Below, one piece after another: positions 30,203-38,446 of a stretch of DNA of 41,770 nt. The notes below the pieces were generated by a model. It made no database searches. It worked only from the letters and a program-made list of their open reading frames with translations, and was not told where the DNA came from. This DNA comes from Clostridia bacterium (GTDB taxonomy: Bacteria > Bacillota > Clostridia > Christensenellales > QALW01). The stretch lies in NCBI GenBank assembly GCA_045536015.1, contig JAZSMS010000111.1, positions 1-41,770 on the forward strand, given 5' to 3'. How positions within the stretch are numbered: position 1 is the first letter of the stretch; the number at the start of each line of letters is the position of its first letter. Made by a program: the position numbers and the translations under genes.

Positions 30203-30538
30203 ATGCAATTACTTGTTGTAAATTTGGATGATTCGGAAGAATTTTTACAAACGCTTTCAAAATTAAAGGATAACGGACTTAACGGTATAGTAATTCCTAC
30301 CACGAGCTTAAAGCACGCACTTATGCATTCGCATATAGACGCAGTGCCGATTTTCGGAAGCATAAGCAAGATAGTAAAACACGATTATCAGCTTAATCAC
30401 ACTCTTTTAATGCTTGTAAGCGAAGAAGAGCTTGAGAATGCTAAAAAGATAGTACGCGACATTACAAAGGGCCTTGGAAGAAAAGGCGTTATGTTTGCAC
30501 TGCCGGTTTCTTTCTGGGAAGGACTTGAGGAAAAATGA
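30203..30538 (+). CDS. Small PII-like (GlnB-fold, beta-alpha-beta x2) protein, putative regulatory partner of the adjacent antiporter
   Basis: 111 aa from the second ATG, which has AAGGA 9 nt upstream. The pattern LLVVNL / helix / GIVIPTT / long loop / LLMLVSEEEL / helix / GVMFALPV suggests a PII-type ferredoxin-like fold. ATGA overlap with the next gene. This is a fold inference only. Confidence 0.45.
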   Translation: MQLLVVNLDDSEEFLQTLSKLKDNGLNGIVIPTTSLKHALMHSHIDAVPIFGSISKIVKHDYQLNHTLLMLVSEEELENAKKIVRDITKGLGRKGVMFALPVSFWEGLEEK

Positions 30539-31779
30539 CAGAATTTTTAAGCCAGTATCCGTTACTTATTTTATTCTTTCTTTTAGCGGCGGGACTTATA
30601 ATGTCAAGAGTTGTAAAGCTTATTGATCTGCCTAACGTTACCGGATATTTGGTTGCGGGACTTTTGATTGGTCCCTGTATTGCAGGTATTGTACCTGAAA
30701 AGACACTTGAAGGCTTTACTGTAATAACAAACGTTGCACTTGGCTTTGTAGCATTTTCTATTGGTGCAGAGTTTAAGCTTGAACATATTAAGCAAATTGG
30801 ATCAAAGGCAATTTGTATAACCTTCTTTCAGGCTATCGGTGCGGTTTTAATGGTAATTATCGGCCTTACTGCCGTTCACTATTTAGTTGGCTGGCAAGCG
30901 GCACCTACGTCGGTTGTGCTTATTTTAGGTGCTGTTGCTTCGGCTACGGCTCCTGCGGCAACGTTAATGGTCGTTCGTCAGTATAAGGCAAAGGGACCGG
31001 TTACCGATGCGCTTTTGCCGGTTGTTGCACTTGATGATGCAATAGGCTTAATGATATTCTCGCTTTGTCTTTCGGTTGCAAAGGTGTTTGATAACCCCGA
31101 GGCTACCCTTAATATTGTAAACGTTGTGCTTCAGCCGCTTGCTGAAATTGGCGCTTCGCTTGCCTTTGGTGCGATAGTTGGCGGACTTTTGTCGATTTGT
31201 ATGAAGTTCTTTAAATCGCGTGCAAACCGTCTTTGCCTTATGGTTGCGGCAGTTTTGCTTGGTACGGTTATAGGCGATATCGTAAGTGCGTTAACGGGCG
31301 GCTGGCTTGCAATGAGCTCGCTTTTAACGTGTATGATGATAGGCGCTATGTTTGCAAATATGCGCGATGATTCTGTTAAAATTCTTGACGGAATAGAACG
31401 CTGGACTCCTCCGGTATTTATGTTGTTCTTTACAATTTCGGGCGCACAGCTTGACTTAAAGCTTCTGCCTGCTTGCGGAGTTGTGGGAATAGTTTATATT
31501 CTGTTCAGAGTTATCGGTAAATATTTCGGTACTTACTTTGGTGCGATAGCGGCAAAGGCAGACGATAAAATTCGTAAGTATTTGGGTGTTGCACTTTTCC
31601 CGCAGGCAGGTGTTGCTATAGGTATGGCAGTAGCCGTTGCGGCAGACCCAGGCATTATGCCCGAACATTCTTGTATGATAGTTACCGTAGTTTTGTGTGC
31701 TACCTTTGTTTACGAGCTTATTGGTCCCGTTCTTACAAAATGGGCACTTACTCGCGCGGGCGAAATAAAAAAATCTTAA
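30535..31779 (+). CDS. CPA2-family monovalent cation:proton antiporter, membrane domain only (no RCK/KTN domain)
   Basis: 414 aa and polytopic, with a Kef/NapA-like N-terminus 'LPNVTGYLVAGLLIGPCIAGI' and 'ATAPAATLMVVRQ'. Confidence 0.8.
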   Translation: MTEFLSQYPLLILFFLLAAGLIMSRVVKLIDLPNVTGYLVAGLLIGPCIAGIVPEKTLEGFTVITNVALGFVAFSIGAEFKLEHIKQIGSKAICITFFQAIGAVLMVIIGLTAVHYLVGWQAAPTSVVLILGAVASATAPAATLMVVRQYKAKGPVTDALLPVVALDDAIGLMIFSLCLSVAKVFDNPEATLNIVNVVLQPLAEIGASLAFGAIVGGLLSICMKFFKSRANRLCLMVAAVLLGTVIGDIVSALTGGWLAMSSLLTCMMIGAMFANMRDDSVKILDGIERWTPPVFMLFFTISGAQLDLKLLPACGVVGIVYILFRVIGKYFGTYFGAIAAKADDKIRKYLGVALFPQAGVAIGMAVAVAADPGIMPEHSCMIVTVVLCATFVYELIGPVLTKWALTRAGEIKKS

Positions 31780-31791
31780 CGGAGAGATAAA

Positions 31792-33480
31792 ATGAATTTT
31801 AAATTCGAAATTGCAAAAGCTATTGCCGAGCAGGCAAAAATTTCTGCAGAAGAAATCGAAGGCTATATTGAAATTCCGCCACAGAAGGATATGGGCGATT
31901 TTGCGTTTCCGTGCTTTAAACTTGCACGCGTTTTACGCGCGGCACCGCCAAAGATTGCACAGGATCTTATGGATAATATTCAGGTTCCTGATTTTATTGC
32001 AAAGGTTTGCGTTGTAGGCGGATATTTAAACTTTTTTGTTGACGCGCAAAAACGTGCCGAGGCAGTTTTAGCCGATATTGACGCTAAAGGCGAAAAGTAC
32101 GGCTCGCAAAACAAGGGCAGGGGTAAAAACGTTTGCATTGACTATTCTTCTATAAACATTGCAAAGCGTTGTCACATAGGTCACTTAACGACGACTGTTT
32201 TAGGTAATTCGCTTGCGAAAATTTATCGCTTTTTAGGGTATAACGTAGTTTCGATAAACCATTTGGGCGACTGGGGTACGCAATTTGGCAAAATGCTTTG
32301 CGCGTACAAAACCTGGGGCAAAAAGGAAGACGTAGAAGAAAAGGGTGTTAATGCTCTTATCGAGCTTTACGTTCGCTTTGAAGCCGAGGCAGACGAGCAA
32401 ATGCAGACTGAGGCACGCGCTTGGTTTAAAAAGATAGAAGACGACGATCCTGAGGCAACAGAGCTTTTTTCGTGGTTTAAGGATATAACCTTAAAGGACG
32501 TTGAAAAGATTTACGATATGCTTAATATCAAGTTTGATTCCTACGCAGGCGAAAGCTTTTATAAGGATAAGTGCGGTGCAGTTATCGACGAGCTTAAGCA
32601 AAAGGATATGCTTAAATTTTCGCAAGGCGCATACGTTGTTCCGCTTGACGAATTTGATATGCCTCCGTGTATTTTGTTAAAATCTGACGGTGCTTCAATA
32701 TATGCCACACGCGATATGGCGGCAGCTTTCTACCGCAAAAAGACTTATGATTTTGATAAGTGCTTGTACGTTGTTGCATATCAGCAAAACCTCCATTTTA
32801 AGCAGGTGTTTAAGGTTATCGAACTTATGGGCTATCCTTGGGCAAAGGATCTTGTTCACGTTCCGTTTGGTATGGTTAGCTTTGAAGGAACAACGCTTTC
32901 TACCCGAAAAGGTCACGTTGTTTATCTTGACGAGCTTTTAACGCGCGCTTGCGATAAGGCGCTTGATATTATAAATGAAAAAAATCCTAACCTTGAAGGT
33001 AAGGAAGAAATTGCCAAGCAGGTTGGCATAGGTGCGGTTATATTCTACGACTTATTCTCTAACAGAATAAAGGACGTTGACTTCTGGTGGGATCGTGCGC
33101 TTAACTTTGAGGGCGAAACGGGACCCTACGTTCAGTATGCACACACCCGCTGTTGCTCGGTGCTTGCTAAGGCAGGCGCGCCTGATAAGCAAAAGGCAGA
33201 TTTTTCGGCACTTTGCGATTCTGCTGCCGAGGATCTTATCGCCAAACTTGAAATCTTTCCGCAGATTGTTGATGATGCTGCAGAAAAGTACGAGCCAAGT
33301 GTTATAACTCGCTATGCTGCCGCGCTTGCACAGTGCTATAACCGTTTTTATTTTGAAGACAGAATTATCGGCGAAGAAGAGGGTGTTTTCCACGCGCGCT
33401 TGCTTTTGACAAAATGTACGCGCGATACGTTAAAAACTGCACTTTCGCTTTTAGGCATAGAAGCACCCGAAAAAATGTAA
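31792..33480 (+). CDS. argS: Arginine--tRNA ligase
   Basis: N-terminal Arg-tRNA-binding domain, HIGH-type motif 'AKRCHIGHLTTTVLGN', and a C-terminal anticodon-binding domain ending '...EAPEKM'. Only 12 nt separate it from the antiporter stop. Confidence 0.93.
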   Translation: MNFKFEIAKAIAEQAKISAEEIEGYIEIPPQKDMGDFAFPCFKLARVLRAAPPKIAQDLMDNIQVPDFIAKVCVVGGYLNFFVDAQKRAEAVLADIDAKGEKYGSQNKGRGKNVCIDYSSINIAKRCHIGHLTTTVLGNSLAKIYRFLGYNVVSINHLGDWGTQFGKMLCAYKTWGKKEDVEEKGVNALIELYVRFEAEADEQMQTEARAWFKKIEDDDPEATELFSWFKDITLKDVEKIYDMLNIKFDSYAGESFYKDKCGAVIDELKQKDMLKFSQGAYVVPLDEFDMPPCILLKSDGASIYATRDMAAAFYRKKTYDFDKCLYVVAYQQNLHFKQVFKVIELMGYPWAKDLVHVPFGMVSFEGTTLSTRKGHVVYLDELLTRACDKALDIINEKNPNLEGKEEIAKQVGIGAVIFYDLFSNRIKDVDFWWDRALNFEGETGPYVQYAHTRCCSVLAKAGAPDKQKADFSALCDSAAEDLIAKLEIFPQIVDDAAEKYEPSVITRYAAALAQCYNRFYFEDRIIGEEEGVFHARLLLTKCTRDTLKTALSLLGIEAPEKM

Positions 33481-33485
33481 CAGTA

Positions 33486-33514
33486 AAAGGCATTGAGGAA
33501 TCAATGCCTTTTTG
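33486..33514 (+). terminator. Rho-independent terminator after argS
   Basis: 10-bp stem aaggcattga/tcaatgcctt with loop ggaa, followed by TTTTG. Confidence 0.88.
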
Positions 33515-33518
33515 TATA

Positions 33519-33547
33519 TTGACTTTTAACTGCAAATTTGTTATAAT
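33519..33547 (+). promoter_or_regulatory. Sigma-A-type promoter for the DUF1538/tandem-PII operon
   Basis: TTGACT, 17-nt spacer, TGtTATAAT (extended -10). Confidence 0.65.
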
Positions 33548-33583
33548 CTTCCGTAGTTTTAATTTTGCAAGGAAGTAATATTT

Positions 33584-35104
33584 TTGAATCCGAAACTCTG
33601 GGAAAAAACTAAAGAATCACTTTCGGCAGTTTTACCGATGACGGCGATAGTGTTTCTCATAAGCATTTTTATCATTCCTATGGAGCTTGGCAAAGCGGTA
33701 ATGTTTATGGTAGGTGCAGTATTGCTTATTTTTGGTATGGGCTTTTTTCAGCTTGGTGCCGAAATGGCAATGACACCCATTGGCGAAGGCATAGGTGTGC
33801 AGATAAGCAAGAGTAAAAAAATGTTTGTGGTATTGCTTATCGGCTTTATTATGGGTGCTATCATTACTATTTCGGAGCCCGACCTTCAGGTGCTTGCCCA
33901 GCAGGTTCCGTCGATACCCAATTACACGCTTATACTGACGGTTGCTATCGGTGTGGGCTTGTTTTTAGCGCTTGCACTTATAAGAATTAAATTTCAAATA
34001 AGCCTTTCGGTGCTTTTAATTATTTTGTATACGATACTTATTGGTTTGTCGTTTTTTGTACCAAAAGAGTTTGTTGCAGTTGCTTTTGACTCCGGCGGCG
34101 TAACAACGGGACCGATGACCGTTCCGTTTATTATGGCTCTTGGTGTCGGTATGGCAAACGTGCGCGGCGATAAAAACTCGGTAAGTGATAGCTTTGGTCT
34201 TGTTGCATTATCAAGTGTAGGACCTATTTTAGCCGTTATGATTTTAGGCTGCTTTTTTAAACCGGACGGAACCGAATACGTGCTTGATAAGGTTGCTGAG
34301 GTAACAAACACGCGCGAGGTTGTTTCTGTATTTGCACACGGACTTCCGCATTACGCAAAGGAAGTTTTGATTTCACTTCTGCCGATAGTTGCAGTGTTTA
34401 TTATCTTTCAGATAGCAACAAAGCGTTATCCCAAGCGCGAGCTTGTAAAAATAATTGTAGGTATAGTTTATACTGCAGTTGGTCTTATGCTTTTCTTGTG
34501 CGGTGTAAACCTTGGCTTTGCGCCTATCGGTTCGCTTTTAGGCGAAGAACTTGCACTTTTAGAATACAAGTGGATACTCATTCCGCTTGGAATGGTAATA
34601 GGTTATTATATAGTTAAGGCAGAGCCTGCTATACAGGTTTTAAACCATCAGGTAGAAAGCGTTACCGACGGTGCAATTTCTGTTAAGGCTATGAACAGAA
34701 GTATGTCCATAGGTGTTGCTGTCAGCGTAGGACTTTCTATGTTGAGGGTGCTTACGGGAATACCGATTTACATTATAATTATTCCCGGTTATCTTATTGC
34801 ACTTGTGCTTTCGCGCATTGTGCCCAAAATGTTTGTAGGTATTGCGTTTGACTCGGGCGGAGTAGCCTCGGGACCTATGACCTCGACGTTTTTGCTTCCG
34901 CTTAGTATCGGCGTTTGTCAGGCTCTTGGCGGAAATTTAATGACGGATGCTTTTGGTGTAGTTGCACTTGTTGCACTTACACCGCTTATAACTATTCAGA
35001 TTATGGGGCTTGTTTATAGAATTAAGACAGAAAAAGCCCAAAAACTTGCAACCGAAGAAGTATTGCCTTCGGATGACAGTGACGAAATTATTGATCTTGA
35101 GTAG
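33584..35104 (+). CDS. DUF1538-like integral membrane protein (internally duplicated, putative transporter)
   Basis: 506 aa and polytopic. The two halves share the signature 'AFDSGGVTTGPMTVPFIMALGVG' / 'AFDSGGVASGPMTSTFLLPLSIG'. TTG start with AAGGAAG 7 nt upstream. Start uncertain: the next in-frame ATG is 17 codons downstream. Confidence 0.65.
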   Translation: MNPKLWEKTKESLSAVLPMTAIVFLISIFIIPMELGKAVMFMVGAVLLIFGMGFFQLGAEMAMTPIGEGIGVQISKSKKMFVVLLIGFIMGAIITISEPDLQVLAQQVPSIPNYTLILTVAIGVGLFLALALIRIKFQISLSVLLIILYTILIGLSFFVPKEFVAVAFDSGGVTTGPMTVPFIMALGVGMANVRGDKNSVSDSFGLVALSSVGPILAVMILGCFFKPDGTEYVLDKVAEVTNTREVVSVFAHGLPHYAKEVLISLLPIVAVFIIFQIATKRYPKRELVKIIVGIVYTAVGLMLFLCGVNLGFAPIGSLLGEELALLEYKWILIPLGMVIGYYIVKAEPAIQVLNHQVESVTDGAISVKAMNRSMSIGVAVSVGLSMLRVLTGIPIYIIIIPGYLIALVLSRIVPKMFVGIAFDSGGVASGPMTSTFLLPLSIGVCQALGGNLMTDAFGVVALVALTPLITIQIMGLVYRIKTEKAQKLATEEVLPSDDSDEIIDLE

Positions 35105-35115
35105 GAGGGATAAAG

Positions 35116-35790
35116 GTGGAAAAGAAATCATATCAACTGCTTTTAATAATTGCTACACCAAAGCTTGCTGATAAGGCGGCAGAAATGTTTAAAGCCAATG
35201 CACTTCCTGTTCAGTACCGAATAAACGCCGAGGGAACGGCTTCAAGCGAGATAATGGATATGCTTGGACTTGGCAGTGTTGATAAGTGCGTACTGATTAC
35301 CACAATTCCAAAGGAAATGGGCAGTCAGATGCTTAAAAAATTGCATAGCGAGCTTAAACTTGATACGGTAAACAGCGGAATTGCCTTTACAATATCGCTT
35401 ACGGGAGCAAGTAATCTTGTTTTAAAAATGCTTGCGCAGGCAATAGAAGAAAACGTTAATAGCGTAAAAGGAGAAAACGTTATGACAGAATCTAATTATG
35501 TTTTAATAAATGCAATAGTAAAACGTGGCTTTTCGGGCGAGGTTATGAATGCGGCGCGCGCAGCAGGCGCAAGAGGCGGAACGGTTATGCATTCACGTTG
35601 CATAGCAAACGAAAACGTAGTAGGCCCTCTTGGATATGACGTACAGGACGAAACCGAAATAGTTTTAATCATTGCACCAAGCGAAAATAAGGTTCAAATT
35701 ATGAAGGCTATAACCGAAACCTGCGGTGTTCATAGCGAGGCAAACGGTATTGTTATGTCGCTTCCCATTGATACGGTTATGGGAATTTAA
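35116..35790 (+). CDS. Tandem PII-like (two GlnB-fold domains) protein
   Basis: 224 aa with a GTG start and AGGAGGG 6 nt upstream. The C-terminal half 'YVLINAIVKRGFSGEVMNAARAAGARGGTVMHSR...EIVLIIAP...ANGIVMSLPIDTVMGI' parallels recalled GlnB (beta1 / alpha1 / T-loop / 'GDGKIFVxPV' region). The N-terminal half repeats the same beta-alpha-beta pattern. Confidence 0.6.
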   Translation: MEKKSYQLLLIIATPKLADKAAEMFKANALPVQYRINAEGTASSEIMDMLGLGSVDKCVLITTIPKEMGSQMLKKLHSELKLDTVNSGIAFTISLTGASNLVLKMLAQAIEENVNSVKGENVMTESNYVLINAIVKRGFSGEVMNAARAAGARGGTVMHSRCIANENVVGPLGYDVQDETEIVLIIAPSENKVQIMKAITETCGVHSEANGIVMSLPIDTVMGI

Positions 35791-35801
35791 AATGTAAAAA
35801 A

Positions 35802-35838
35802 AGGACGGGAAAAAATTCTCGTCTTTTTGTTTTTTTTA
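35802..35838 (+). terminator. Rho-independent terminator after the tandem-PII gene
   Basis: Stem gacggga/tctcgtc (one G-U pair), followed by TTTTTGTTTTTTT. Confidence 0.7.
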
Positions 35839-35953: not shown

Positions 35954-37096
35954 ATGAAAAAGTTGTTTTCGGTAATAATTTGCCTGACGCTTATAATTGC
36001 TCTTGTTGCATGTTCAAAGCCGCAAGAGCCCATAATACAGCCTATCGAAACACCTACCCCAACGGCTACGACAACCCCTGAAAGCACCCCAGAGCCTACA
36101 CCGGAGGTAACGCCCGAGGTAACGTTAGAGCCTACACCTGCGCAAAATGCAGGTCCCGTTGATTTAAGCAAGTTTACGTTAGCGTTCGTTGCGGGCGAGA
36201 CTGTAAATGTTCGTGCGCAGGCAACTACTGAAAGTCAAAGAATAACAAGCCTTGCAAGAAACACGCAGATAAAGGTTTATAAGGTAAGCGGTGAATGGGC
36301 ATATATTGGCTACGGTGACGATAAACAGGGTTATATGTTTAATGATTACGTTTCTGAAAAGCCTGTTGCAACGCCCGAGCCTACACCTGAGCCTACACCG
36401 GATCCTAATTTTGAATATAAGTATAATTCCAATGTTGATATAAACGATAACGTATTTTTAGATGCACTTGAATATACGGGCTACAACCTAAAGAAACACC
36501 GCGCTGACGGAAATATGTGGGTGTTTATTTATGGTAAAGATAAGGCGGGGCTTGGCTATTTGTCGGGTCTTGGTTACGATTACGGAGCTTCTACGGGGTA
36601 CGAAACCAATTCACAGGGGCTTCCTGACATAGCACGTTTTAAGAAAAAGGGCGGACTTGTTTGCGCTTCGTATTTAACGTACGTTTACTTTAATTATCTT
36701 CCAAACGTTGCAGGAATAGATACCTCGCATCTTGCTCGCCCGGAATATCCTTGTTCAGCACAGTCGTGGCGCGAGGCGGCTAACAAGTGGGTAAAGCAGG
36801 GGCTTTCACGCAAAATTTCGTTTACGGCAAAGCGCTATTCAAGCGGCGTTGTTAGCTTTTCGCCTGCCGAAACAATTCCCGTTGGCTCGGTAGTTGTGTT
36901 TAAGGTGGCGGGAGCGTCGGATAATTCCGCGGCAAGACACGTAACGCTCTATGCAGGTCATGCGGGTGGCTATCATTGGCTTACGCACGTTGGTAACGAT
37001 AGAGGTCCCGAAATGATAACTATTGAAAATATGGGCTTTGGAAGTACACCCGAAATTCCGGTTGAAGTAATCACTCCTCCGATATATTTTGAGTAA
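35954..37096 (+). CDS. Lipoprotein with SH3b domain and a C-terminal putative papain-like (NlpC/P60-type) cell-wall hydrolase domain
   Basis: Lipobox 'IIALVAC', two Pro/Thr/Glu linkers and SH3b 'VNVRAQATTESQRITSLARNTQIKVYKVSGEWAYIGY'. The C-terminal domain has candidate catalytic Cys ('GGLVCASYLTYVY') and His ('HVTLYAGH') residues. The catalytic assignment is inference. Confidence 0.6.
   Translation: MKKLFSVIICLTLIIALVACSKPQEPIIQPIETPTPTATTTPESTPEPTPEVTPEVTLEPTPAQNAGPVDLSKFTLAFVAGETVNVRAQATTESQRITSLARNTQIKVYKVSGEWAYIGYGDDKQGYMFNDYVSEKPVATPEPTPEPTPDPNFEYKYNSNVDINDNVFLDALEYTGYNLKKHRADGNMWVFIYGKDKAGLGYLSGLGYDYGASTGYETNSQGLPDIARFKKKGGLVCASYLTYVYFNYLPNVAGIDTSHLARPEYPCSAQSWREAANKWVKQGLSRKISFTAKRYSSGVVSFSPAETIPVGSVVVFKVAGASDNSAARHVTLYAGHAGGYHWLTHVGNDRGPEMITIENMGFGSTPEIPVEVITPPIYFE
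36377..36399 (+). repeat. Short tandem coding repeat (GAGCCTACACC, period 12) encoding an EPTP linker
   Basis: The 11-mer GAGCCTACACC occurs at 36377 and 36389 in tandem, and again at 36092 and 36128 in the first linker of the same gene. Confidence 0.8.
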
Positions 37097-37140: not shown

Positions 37141-37776
37141 TTAAATACTGCTTGGCAGGCGTGTTGACATGCTTCCGAGGTGCTCGTCATAACTGCGCAA
37201 AACTTTTGTCCAAACGCCGTTTTCGTAATTGACGATTGTTATCGAAGAATTAGAAACCCAATTAAAATCGTACGTATGCTCAATTCCTCCTGCAAAAAAT
37301 GCTTCCATTGCTCTAATCGGTGTAGCATGCGCGGCAATACAGATGGTTTTGCCGTCGTTTTCTTTTGCAAGGTGGGCAAGGCAGGCAGAAACACGCTCAA
37401 ATAAATGTGTAAACGCTTCGCCCTCGGGGGGAGTGCAATTTATTAGGTCGGTCTTCCAAAGCTCGTATTCTTCGGGAAAGTCGATGCCTATCTGATCGAA
37501 AATACAGCTTTCCCACAGTCCGCCGCACAATTCGCGCAGGGCTTTTTCTTTGAAAATAGGGCAGTTTTGCCTTTTTGCAATAATTTCGCCCGTTTTAAAA
37601 GCGCGCTGAAGGTCCGAGGCGTAAACTGCGTCGATTTTATATTTGTCAAGTTCTTCTGCCGTTGCGGTTGCCTGCAAAATGCCCTTTTGTGTAAGCGGAA
37701 AGTTTCCGCTACCGCCAAAAAGTCCCATTTCGTTTGCAAGGCTTTGACCGTGACGAACGATAATAAATTGTGTCAT
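37141..37776 (-). CDS. Histidine phosphatase family protein (phosphoglycerate mutase / alpha-ribazole phosphatase-like)
   Basis: 'FIIVRHGQSLANE' RHG motif and a later 'AAHATPIRA' His motif. Start set at the second ATG (MTQF), which has GGAGA 6 nt upstream. Confidence 0.8.
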   Translation of the reverse strand: MTQFIIVRHGQSLANEMGLFGGSGNFPLTQKGILQATATAEELDKYKIDAVYASDLQRAFKTGEIIAKRQNCPIFKEKALRELCGGLWESCIFDQIGIDFPEEYELWKTDLINCTPPEGEAFTHLFERVSACLAHLAKENDGKTICIAAHATPIRAMEAFFAGGIEHTYDFNWVSNSSITIVNYENGVWTKVLRSYDEHLGSMSTRLPSSI

Positions 37777-37903
37777 AGCTTTCTCCAAAGGTAAAATTTT
37801 GTATAAAAATTATAACATATAAAAAGTTTTTTGAAAAGTATCTTTATTTAATTTAAAAAATGTTGTATAATAAATTGATAAACTTTGTTTTATGGAGATT
37901 TTT

Positions 37904-38446
37904 ATGGAAAATTTAAAGAATATTGCCGCGCAGGCAACGGAAGAAATTCTTGCGCAGGCTAATTTGAGAAAGGGCGAAATTTTTGTCGTAGGTTGCTCGT
38001 CAAGCGAAATAACGGGCGGTGTTATCGGCAAAAATTCAAATCTTGATGCCGCTAAAGAGGTCTTTGACGGAATTTATTCTGTTTTAAACAAAAACGGAAT
38101 TTATCTTGCGGCACAGTGCTGTGAGCATTTAAACCGCGCAATTATTATCGAGCGCGAAGCGGCAGAAAAATTCGGACTTGAAATTGTTTCGGTAGTTCCT
38201 CAGCCTAAAGCGGGCGGAAGCTTTGCAACAAGCGCGTATGCGGCTTTTTCTGATCCTGTTGCGGTAGAAAGCATAAAGGCAAGTGCAGGACTTGATATTG
38301 GCGGAACGCTTATAGGTATGCACTTAAAGGCAGTTGCGGTTCCTGTAAGAATTTCGATAAATAAAATAGGCAATGCAAATATTTTGTGCGCACGCACGCG
38401 TCCTAAATATATAGGCGGCGAGCGCGCAAGGTACAGTTGGGAGTGA
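37904..38446 (+). CDS. UPF0340 / TIGR01440-family protein (YwlG-like)
   Basis: 'GEIFVVGCSSSEI', 'AAQCCEHLNRA', 'PQPKAGGS' and 'GMHLK' blocks as recalled for B. subtilis YwlG. Second ATG chosen because GGAG lies 6 nt upstream. Confidence 0.7.
   Translation: MENLKNIAAQATEEILAQANLRKGEIFVVGCSSSEITGGVIGKNSNLDAAKEVFDGIYSVLNKNGIYLAAQCCEHLNRAIIIEREAAEKFGLEIVSVVPQPKAGGSFATSAYAAFSDPVAVESIKASAGLDIGGTLIGMHLKAVAVPVRISINKIGNANILCARTRPKYIGGERARYSWE

Follow-up and report, generated by a model that had tools for sequence, protein, structure and literature searches.

A two-gene module of a fused double-DUF1538 membrane protein and a tandem PII-like protein in a Clostridia bacterium: a putative PII-gated cation/proton transporter

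A two-gene module was found in a 41,770-nucleotide (nt) stretch of DNA from a Clostridia bacterium (assembly GCA_045536015.1, contig JAZSMS010000111.1, positions 1 to 41,770 of the forward strand); this whole stretch is called the window. The module contained two co-oriented open reading frames (ORFs) on the + strand with an 11-nt gap between them, where gene 1 encodes a membrane protein of the DUF1538 family and gene 2 encodes a protein with two PII-like domains. Their lengths (506 and 224 amino acids) and their spacing were as described in the initial annotation, which had been made from the sequence alone. The features of the locus were as follows.

31792-33480: argS ORF, upstream of the module.
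33485-33512, + strand: terminator-like hairpin at the 3' end of argS, with a 12-pair stem and a T run behind it, at the 5' limit of the module.
33519-33547, + strand: sigma-70-type promoter TTGACT-17-TATAAT with a TG extension, 11 of 12 consensus matches.
33569-33575, + strand: ribosome-binding site AAGGAAG, 8 nt upstream of the TTG start of gene 1.
33584-35104, + strand: gene 1, fused double-DUF1538 membrane protein of the UmpAB family, 506 amino acids, TTG start.
33584-34345, + strand: repeat 1 of gene 1, residues 1-254, UmpB-like, N-terminus predicted to be cytoplasmic (UmpB model, BLASTP between the halves, Lys and Arg counts of the loops).
34082-34129, + strand: signature AFDSGGVTTGPMTVPF, residues 167-182, with D169, on a predicted broken transmembrane helix.
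34346-35101, + strand: repeat 2 of gene 1, residues 255-506, UmpA-like, with predicted opposite membrane orientation (UmpA model, Lys and Arg counts of the loops).
34844-34891, + strand: signature AFDSGGVASGPMTSTF, residues 421-436, with D423, on a second predicted broken helix.
35103-35109, + strand: ribosome-binding site AGGAGGG, overlapping the TAG stop of gene 1 and 6 nt 5' of the GTG start of gene 2.
35116-35790, + strand: gene 2, tandem PII-like protein, 224 amino acids, GTG start.
35116-35400, + strand: N-type PII-like domain of gene 2, about residues 1-95, with GTAxSExLDxLGLG at the T-loop position.
35401-35496, + strand: linker of gene 2, about residues 96-127, one helix followed by a low-confidence stretch (predicted local distance difference test, pLDDT, 44-60).
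35497-35787, + strand: C-type PII-like domain of gene 2, about residues 128-224, with a variable, low-confidence T-loop.
35799-35828, + strand: strong intrinsic-terminator-like hairpin followed by a T run, at the 3' limit of the module.

The promoter was of the near-consensus extended -10 type (TTGACT-17-TGnTATAAT, a sequence match). The promoter and the terminators are consensus matches only, and at 33519-33547 and 35799-35828 they agree with the earlier proposal that the module has a promoter and a terminator of its own. The positions given earlier for the two signatures were correct within 1 nt.

The pairing of the two genes was found to be conserved. Eighty species-level genome loci contained a DUF1538 protein 61-77% identical to that of the window; two of them were cut by a contig end and left out, and the tandem PII gene was present directly downstream, on the same strand, in all of the remaining 78 loci. 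The pair was present in 9 of 9 plasmid or chromid records with a DUF1538 match, and a PII-like ORF was found directly downstream in all seven of the records whose neighbourhood was opened. The metagenome scan was seeded with the split (two-gene) DUF1538 type, and a PII-like gene was found downstream in 70 of its 71 evaluable loci, with L116 as the only true exception. The adjacency and co-orientation that mark PII-regulated transporter operons were therefore observed in all three sets, as the initial annotation had anticipated for the gene pair. The partner was annotated as 'P-II family nitrogen regulator' by the Prokaryotic Genome Annotation Pipeline (PGAP) in Paraclostridium, Vescimonas, Peptoclostridium, Methylocystis, and Chelativorans. 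The module spans Firmicutes and Proteobacteria. Three cultured Firmicutes, Virgibacillus necropolis, Alkalicella caledoniensis, and Clostridium formicaceticum, were found to contain it, as were the cultured Enterococcus raffinosus (L085) and Paraclostridium bifermentans, and the closest relatives of the window module belonged to uncultured gut and rumen Clostridia. The DUF1538 and PII genes overlapped in other loci. The flanking genes varied from locus to locus, and therefore the two-gene (or three-gene) set is the conserved unit. In the neighbourhoods seen, no ion-homeostasis gene was consistently adjacent, and neither nitrogen nor carbon-fixation genes showed a conserved link to the pair. 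No literature on a DUF1538-PII link was found in full text; subscription journals were mostly outside reach, and this absence is not proof.

The number of PII domains was found to depend on whether the transporter is fused or split, a relation that may be partly phylogenetic. All 33 complete fused loci contained two PII domains, 31 as one tandem ORF and 2 as two ORFs. Thirty split loci with a downstream PII ORF were evaluable; of these, 22 contained one domain, 4 contained two single ORFs and 4 contained a tandem ORF. The N-type and C-type domains were present as separate adjacent ORFs in 6 loci. A partner with three PII domains was found in none of the more than 160 loci covered. In one split locus (L099, metagenome contig Ga0180433_10001774, 3956-5026) the second DUF1538 ORF ran in frame into the PII domain, with Pfam DUF1538 at residues 25-234 and P-II at residues 252-350, and the junction retained an internal AGGAGG and an ATG. 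This fusion may be due to a recently lost stop codon or to an assembly error; as a sequence feature, it would be the only indirect hint at a physical complex of the two proteins.

Split DUF1538-DUF1538-PII cassettes were also found on the Methylocystis rosea plasmid pGW6_2 (L088) and on a Chelativorans plasmid (L089), where they sit among IS66/IS4 transposases or conjugative-plasmid genes; therefore the cassette can travel on mobile DNA. The first DUF1538 gene of the Chelativorans cassette was truncated to 90 amino acids. Clostridia-type modules, 68-71% identical to that of the window, were present in four bins labelled Bacteroides, Muribaculaceae, or Paludibacteraceae (L031, L041, L063, and L067), which reflects either mis-binning or horizontal transfer.

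Gene 1 matched the Pfam family DUF1538 (PF07556) in two stretches, with an E-value of 5e-141 and 467.5 bits against a cut-off of 22.6; the best stretch, residues 268-477, spanned the full Pfam model. The halves of the protein, compared with each other by BLASTP, showed 32% identity over 222 residues (E 2e-29). The family and the two homologous halves had both been named in the initial annotation. The only NCBIfam matches of gene 1 were the UmpA and UmpB models (NF041627, NF041628), of which the UmpB model covered residues 11-219 in the N-terminal half and the UmpA model residues 257-477 in the C-terminal half. The scores were 191.4 and 150.5 bits, far short of the 490 and 500 bits set as equivalog cut-offs. 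By sequence, gene 1 is a distant family relative of UmpA and UmpB and not an orthologue; we read it as the two-subunit UmpAB/DUF1538 transporter in the form of one chain. The transporter search returned at least 8000 sequence clusters at 90% identity. The split-type loci L088 and L089 were also distant from UmpAB (80-115 bits).

UmpAB is the single characterised DUF1538 pair. It was found in Halomonas zhaodongensis by complementation of Escherichia coli KNabc and was described in 2017 as a hetero-dimeric, pH-dependent Na+(Li+,K+)/H+ antiporter (PMC5484666). Contrary to the earlier statement, DUF1538 therefore no longer lacks an assigned function, as the UmpA and UmpB models of NCBIfam also show; UmpAB is no close homolog of the window protein, which is distant from it. 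The two systems share the Pfam family, two homologous units of seven transmembrane segments (TMS) acting together, and one Arg, two Asp, and one Glu per unit, which are R134, D169, D202, and E98 here (PMC5484666). They differ in that the units of the window protein are fused in one chain, in the order UmpB-like then UmpA-like, and in that the similarity is low by the scores given above. UmpAB was moreover studied without a PII partner, and its paper contains 0 mentions of PII (PMC5484666).

The model of gene 1 was built with AlphaFold2 (AF2) on an alignment of 84 sequences with 38-77% identity to the query. It was all-helical, with a pLDDT of 84.2 and a predicted template modelling score (pTM) of 0.83. 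In the signature of repeat 1, a helix at residues 161-175 was followed by a break at G176-P177-M178 and a second helix at 179-194; in that of repeat 2, helices at 415-429 and 431-448 were separated by a break around P431. Each signature would thus lie on one membrane crossing made of two short helices, a discontinuous helix, and the breaks predicted at the GPM of both signatures favour the earlier guess of such helices. The model had no meaningful match in the Protein Data Bank (PDB) by Foldseek (best E 0.06, TM-score at most 0.21), and the DUF1538 family profile found no PDB sequence at E<=1; therefore the fold of gene 1 has no solved relative. Single-sequence PDB searches with the gene 1 and gene 2 proteins gave nothing meaningful.

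The topology was predicted with the positive-inside rule, from the mean number of Lys and Arg residues (K+R) per loop over the 84 sequences. The counts alternated along each half, and the halves were in opposite phase. The means, in which TM1 to TM6 are transmembrane helices, were as follows.

Loop before TM1: half 1, 2.6; half 2, 1.6.
Loop TM1-TM2: half 1, 0.0; half 2, 5.2.
Loop after TM2: half 1, 2.4; half 2, 1.2.
EPxxQVL region: half 1, 0.3; half 2, 2.0.
Loop TM4-TM5: half 1, 2.2; half 2, 1.1.
Loop TM5-TM6: half 1, 0.4; half 2, 1.2.
Loop after the motif: half 1, 3.0; half 2, 0.2.
C-terminal end of the half: half 1, 0.9; half 2, 4.0.

Because the phase is opposite between the halves, gene 1 is predicted to be a 7+7 inverted repeat, with seven crossings per repeat and both termini in the cytoplasm. 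The C-terminal tail, which is rich in Lys and Arg and then acidic, is likewise predicted to be cytoplasmic. Seven TMS per subunit were also predicted for UmpAB (PMC5484666).

Residue conservation was counted over the 315 distinct DUF1538 domains that all the retrieved loci provided. E98, P99, D169, and G176 were 100% conserved, R134 was conserved in 97% of the domains, with Lys in the remainder, and D202 in 93%. Each repeat contained an invariant Asp (D169 and D423) and an invariant Glu-Pro (at E98 and E347). Carboxylates near broken helices are expected of an ion- or proton-binding centre, by analogy with NhaA-type antiporters.

In gene 2, the Pfam family P-II (PF00543) was matched only at residues 130-222, with an E-value of 0.0015 and 19.3 bits, below the gathering score of 25 bits, and the two halves of the 224-amino-acid protein gave no significant BLASTP alignment with each other (E 0.19). 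The tandem PII architecture proposed earlier is therefore not visible from the window sequence alone; at the family level it is solid. An exhaustive family search with this protein gave 1856 clusters at 50% identity (E<=0.001), of which 912 had E<=1e-10, and nearly all of these 912 were about 220-250 amino acids long and aligned over their full length. PF00543 was matched at E<=0.01 in 71 of 82 diverse family members (best 4e-12), and the partner proteins of L087, L088, L089, and L099 scored 49.2, 33.3, 37.7, and 25.4 bits, respectively. The family profiles of the N-half and the C-half aligned with each other by hhalign with 98% probability (E 1e-13 over 97 columns). The two domain types are accordingly homologous but diverged, two PII paralogues kept as one unit. 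The C-type domain was the one common to the single-domain partners of split DUF1538 pairs, which matched profile positions 132-230 with E-values of 1e-27 to 1e-28.

The AF2 model of gene 2 (pLDDT 84.7, pTM 0.81) contained two beta-alpha-beta-beta-alpha-beta domains, and a ferredoxin-like fold with a T-loop between beta2 and beta3 was predicted for both. The linker was poorly predicted, with pLDDT below 50 at residues 111-118, and poorly conserved (mean column identity 0.27); the loop at residues 161-180 also had low pLDDT. The best low-deviation Foldseek matches of gene 2 were single PII/GlnK chains (2o66, 2o67, 6yc6, 2j9e, and 4ozn), with TM-scores of 0.63-0.69 and root-mean-square deviations of 3.3-5.2, and no two-domain PDB structure matched gene 2 well by Foldseek. 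The only PDB sequence found by the gene 2 family profile was NifI of the methanogen nitrogenase-PII supercomplex 9p1x (E 0.0013). Some members of the tandem family were named 'transposase' in records of metagenome-assembled genomes (P0018, P0065, P0076, and P0086), which looks like a mis-annotation; complete genomes annotate the family as 'P-II family nitrogen regulator'.

The C-terminal domain had been said to align well with GlnB, and this claim was not borne out. Besides the sub-threshold Pfam score, the alignments with NifI and by MAFFT showed (T/S)EAxG in place of the canonical B-loop GDGR/GDGK, and the gene 2 chain was found to stop before the C-terminal Arg segment, which we take to be R101/R103 in E. 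coli GlnB numbering. The family half-profiles, aligned by hhalign with E. coli GlnB, gave probabilities of 2.4% and 1.2%, which were uninformative. The T-loop segment GTAxSExLDxLGLG was the best-conserved part of the N-type domain, with a mean column identity of 0.66 against 0.44 for the whole domain, whereas the C-type T-loop was variable (0.47) with low pLDDT. In the earlier interpretation as a whole, the family, the pseudo-symmetry, the tandem PII, and the operon stood; the lack of a function and the GlnB alignment did not.

The initial annotation had compared the module with AmtB-GlnK and SbtA-SbtB, and this analogy was judged reasonable. In AmtB-GlnK, an ammonium channel is plugged by the T-loop of an operon-encoded PII protein; SbtA-SbtB is a Na+/bicarbonate symporter with a PII-like regulator that binds adenine nucleotides and cyclic di-AMP (c-di-AMP). 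As in AmtB-GlnK, a transporter gene and a PII-family gene lie in one operon and their pairing is conserved, and docking of the PII protein on the cytoplasmic face via the T-loop may be expected here by analogy. The membrane fold of AmtB is, however, unrelated to that of the window transporter, and GlnK is a 112-amino-acid subunit of a homotrimer, whereas the partner here consists of two diverged PII domains in one chain; it is also without the canonical residues for ATP and 2-oxoglutarate (2-OG), and no nitrogen-gene link was seen. With SbtA-SbtB the module shares a PII-like protein dedicated to a secondary transporter, and SbtA is Na+-coupled with an inverted repeat. SbtB shows that PII-like proteins can use ligands other than 2-OG. 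SbtA belongs to another transporter family, and SbtB is single-domain and keeps its nucleotide site. The module thus differs from both systems in the transporter fold, in the covalently joined, diverged PII pair, and in the loss of the nucleotide and 2-OG residues. In methanogens, NifI1 and NifI2 form a heterotrimeric PII complex (PDB 9p1x; bioRxiv 10.1101/2025.09.09.675011), in which, as here, two diverged PII paralogues act together. The NifI proteins are separate chains, whereas the paralogous domains are covalently joined here; NifI also keeps its ADP and 2-OG pockets and targets nitrogenase rather than a transporter. The N-type/C-type pair would be a second kind of heteromeric PII if its assembly is PII-like.

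In our reading, to which we give a probability of about 0.55, the module encodes a secondary transporter of the cation/proton type together with a heteromeric PII-like regulator that is dedicated to it and gates it. For this mechanism we infer the topology, ion site, substrate, physical contact, ligand, and oligomeric state or stoichiometry. The repeats of gene 1 would form two homologous seven-helix units of opposite orientation, with both termini in the cytoplasm, and each repeat would give one transmembrane helix broken at G-P-M and carrying an Asp (D169 or D423). The four buried carboxylates D169, D423, E98, and E347 would make up the ion- or proton-binding centre, and gene 1 would most likely exchange monovalent cations for protons, like UmpAB. 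The gene 2 protein would be cytoplasmic and would dock on the transporter from the cytoplasmic side. The contact element is likely to be the conserved T-loop of the N-type domain, because it is the best-conserved segment of that domain and the C-type T-loop is variable. Gene 2 would then switch transport on or off in response to a small-molecule signal, which is probably not the canonical pair of ATP/ADP and 2-OG because the classical binding residues are absent. A machine-learning study, correlative in nature, listed DUF1538 next to Mnh/Mrp and K+ transporters in the 20 Pfam features that best predict the pH optimum for growth (PMC13255231), which is weak independent support for an ion or proton role.

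Several points weigh against this reading. The canonical ATP/2-OG site residues are not conserved in gene 2, and the protein might sense no ligand at all. The predicted topology is based on charge bias and secondary structure only, and the conservation of D169 is partly built in, since the motif was in the search patterns; E98-P99 was not in the patterns. The sequencing runs holding the window sequence were DNA metagenomes only (faeces, sheep, and bovine gut) and gave no transcript evidence. Non-specific transporters can also pass the KNabc screen. The substrate is not simply transferable from UmpAB, because the window protein scores far below the cut-offs, and the UmpAB assignment itself is thin, resting on one study with KNabc complementation and vesicle assays (PMC5484666). 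The link with optimal pH could reflect phylogeny, and its paper gives no direction (PMC13255231).

The main rival, which we consider rather unlikely, keeps the same PII-gated DUF1538 architecture with a substrate other than Na+/K+/H+, e.g., ammonium, bicarbonate or another anion, or an organic metabolite. Na+/H+ exchange by UmpAB would then be a secondary activity or one confined to its clade. The distant relationship of the window protein to UmpAB fits this, as do the lack of a solved fold relative that would constrain the substrate and the finding that ion-homeostasis genes were not consistently adjacent. Of the two PII-transporter pairs studied in depth, AmtB-GlnK transports ammonium and SbtA-SbtB transports bicarbonate. 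However, the neighbourhoods seen were also without conserved nitrogen or carbon-fixation genes, and invariant carboxylates that lie in the membrane on broken helices are a typical feature of ion-coupled sites. The sole experimental datum for the DUF1538 family is moreover cation/proton antiport (PMC5484666), and the pH-optimum model places the family with genes of cation and pH homeostasis (PMC13255231).

It is improbable that the membrane protein is primarily not a transporter and acts as a sensor or anchor ('transceptor') that sequesters the PII-like protein and releases it for other cytoplasmic targets, or that the PII-like protein serves in structure or assembly and is no ligand-controlled switch. 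PII proteins are sequestered at membranes by AmtB in signalling, the canonical effector-binding residues are missing here, and the near-obligate pairing and the one in-frame fusion would also fit a permanent subunit. A 7+7 inverted repeat with broken helices is, however, a classic transporter architecture, and UmpAB, on a fragment described with ORF1-4 only, gives antiport in E. coli (PMC5484666); therefore the membrane part is a transporter in at least one case, and it is active without a co-expressed partner. That two unrelated genes merely share one promoter, for which nothing specific speaks beyond the sub-threshold P-II score of the window protein, is effectively refuted by the conservation data, as the pairing holds across Firmicutes and Proteobacteria while the flanks vary, the genes overlap in other loci, and the number of PII domains follows the state of the transporter.

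Upstream of argS, a 414-amino-acid CPA2 antiporter (30535-31779, + strand) matched the Pfam family Na_H_Exchanger (E 2.8e-26), and its ATGA start was overlapped by a 111-amino-acid ORF (30203-30535, + strand). The C-terminal end of the 111-amino-acid protein, GVMFALPVSFWEGL, resembles the C-terminal motif of the PII-like family. This ORF had no Pfam match and was rejected as a further PII-like protein, as the signal was too weak (8 bits by hmmsearch; hhalign probability 28% over 89 columns). If the protein were truly PII-like, two modules of a PII-like protein plus a cation antiporter would lie side by side. By Pfam, the downstream genes encode a secreted SH3_3-domain protein with Pro/Thr/Glu-rich linkers (35954-37096, + strand), a histidine phosphatase of the family His_Phos_1 (37141-37788, - strand), and a DUF436 protein (37892-38446, + strand), and none of the three appears to be connected with the module.

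Few signal processors in biology are as widespread as the PII proteins, and to our knowledge only two PII-transporter partnerships, AmtB-GlnK and SbtA-SbtB, are understood. The present module is real, ordinary-looking, widespread, and apparently unstudied. It is abundant, with at least 8000 transporter clusters (90% identity) and 912 partner clusters (50% identity, E<=1e-10), and its presence in cultured hosts makes it directly testable. Beyond the putative PII-gated cation/proton transporter of the window, we suggest only tentatively that DUF1538-PII could represent a third, phylum-spanning class of PII-gated transporter. Such a class would combine an unsolved 7+7 fold with an obligate heteromeric PII whose paralogous domains are fused in one chain in Clostridia; having lost the ATP/2-OG pocket, this PII would relay a different signal via the N-domain T-loop, which in Firmicutes could be c-di-AMP or another ion-homeostasis messenger. 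The module joins a structurally unsolved transporter fold to a variant of PII in which the classical effector site is lost. Solving it would define a new transporter fold and would show how a normally three-fold symmetric sensor controls a two-fold pseudo-symmetric target, and the module could reveal a new input into the ion and pH homeostasis of gut anaerobes.

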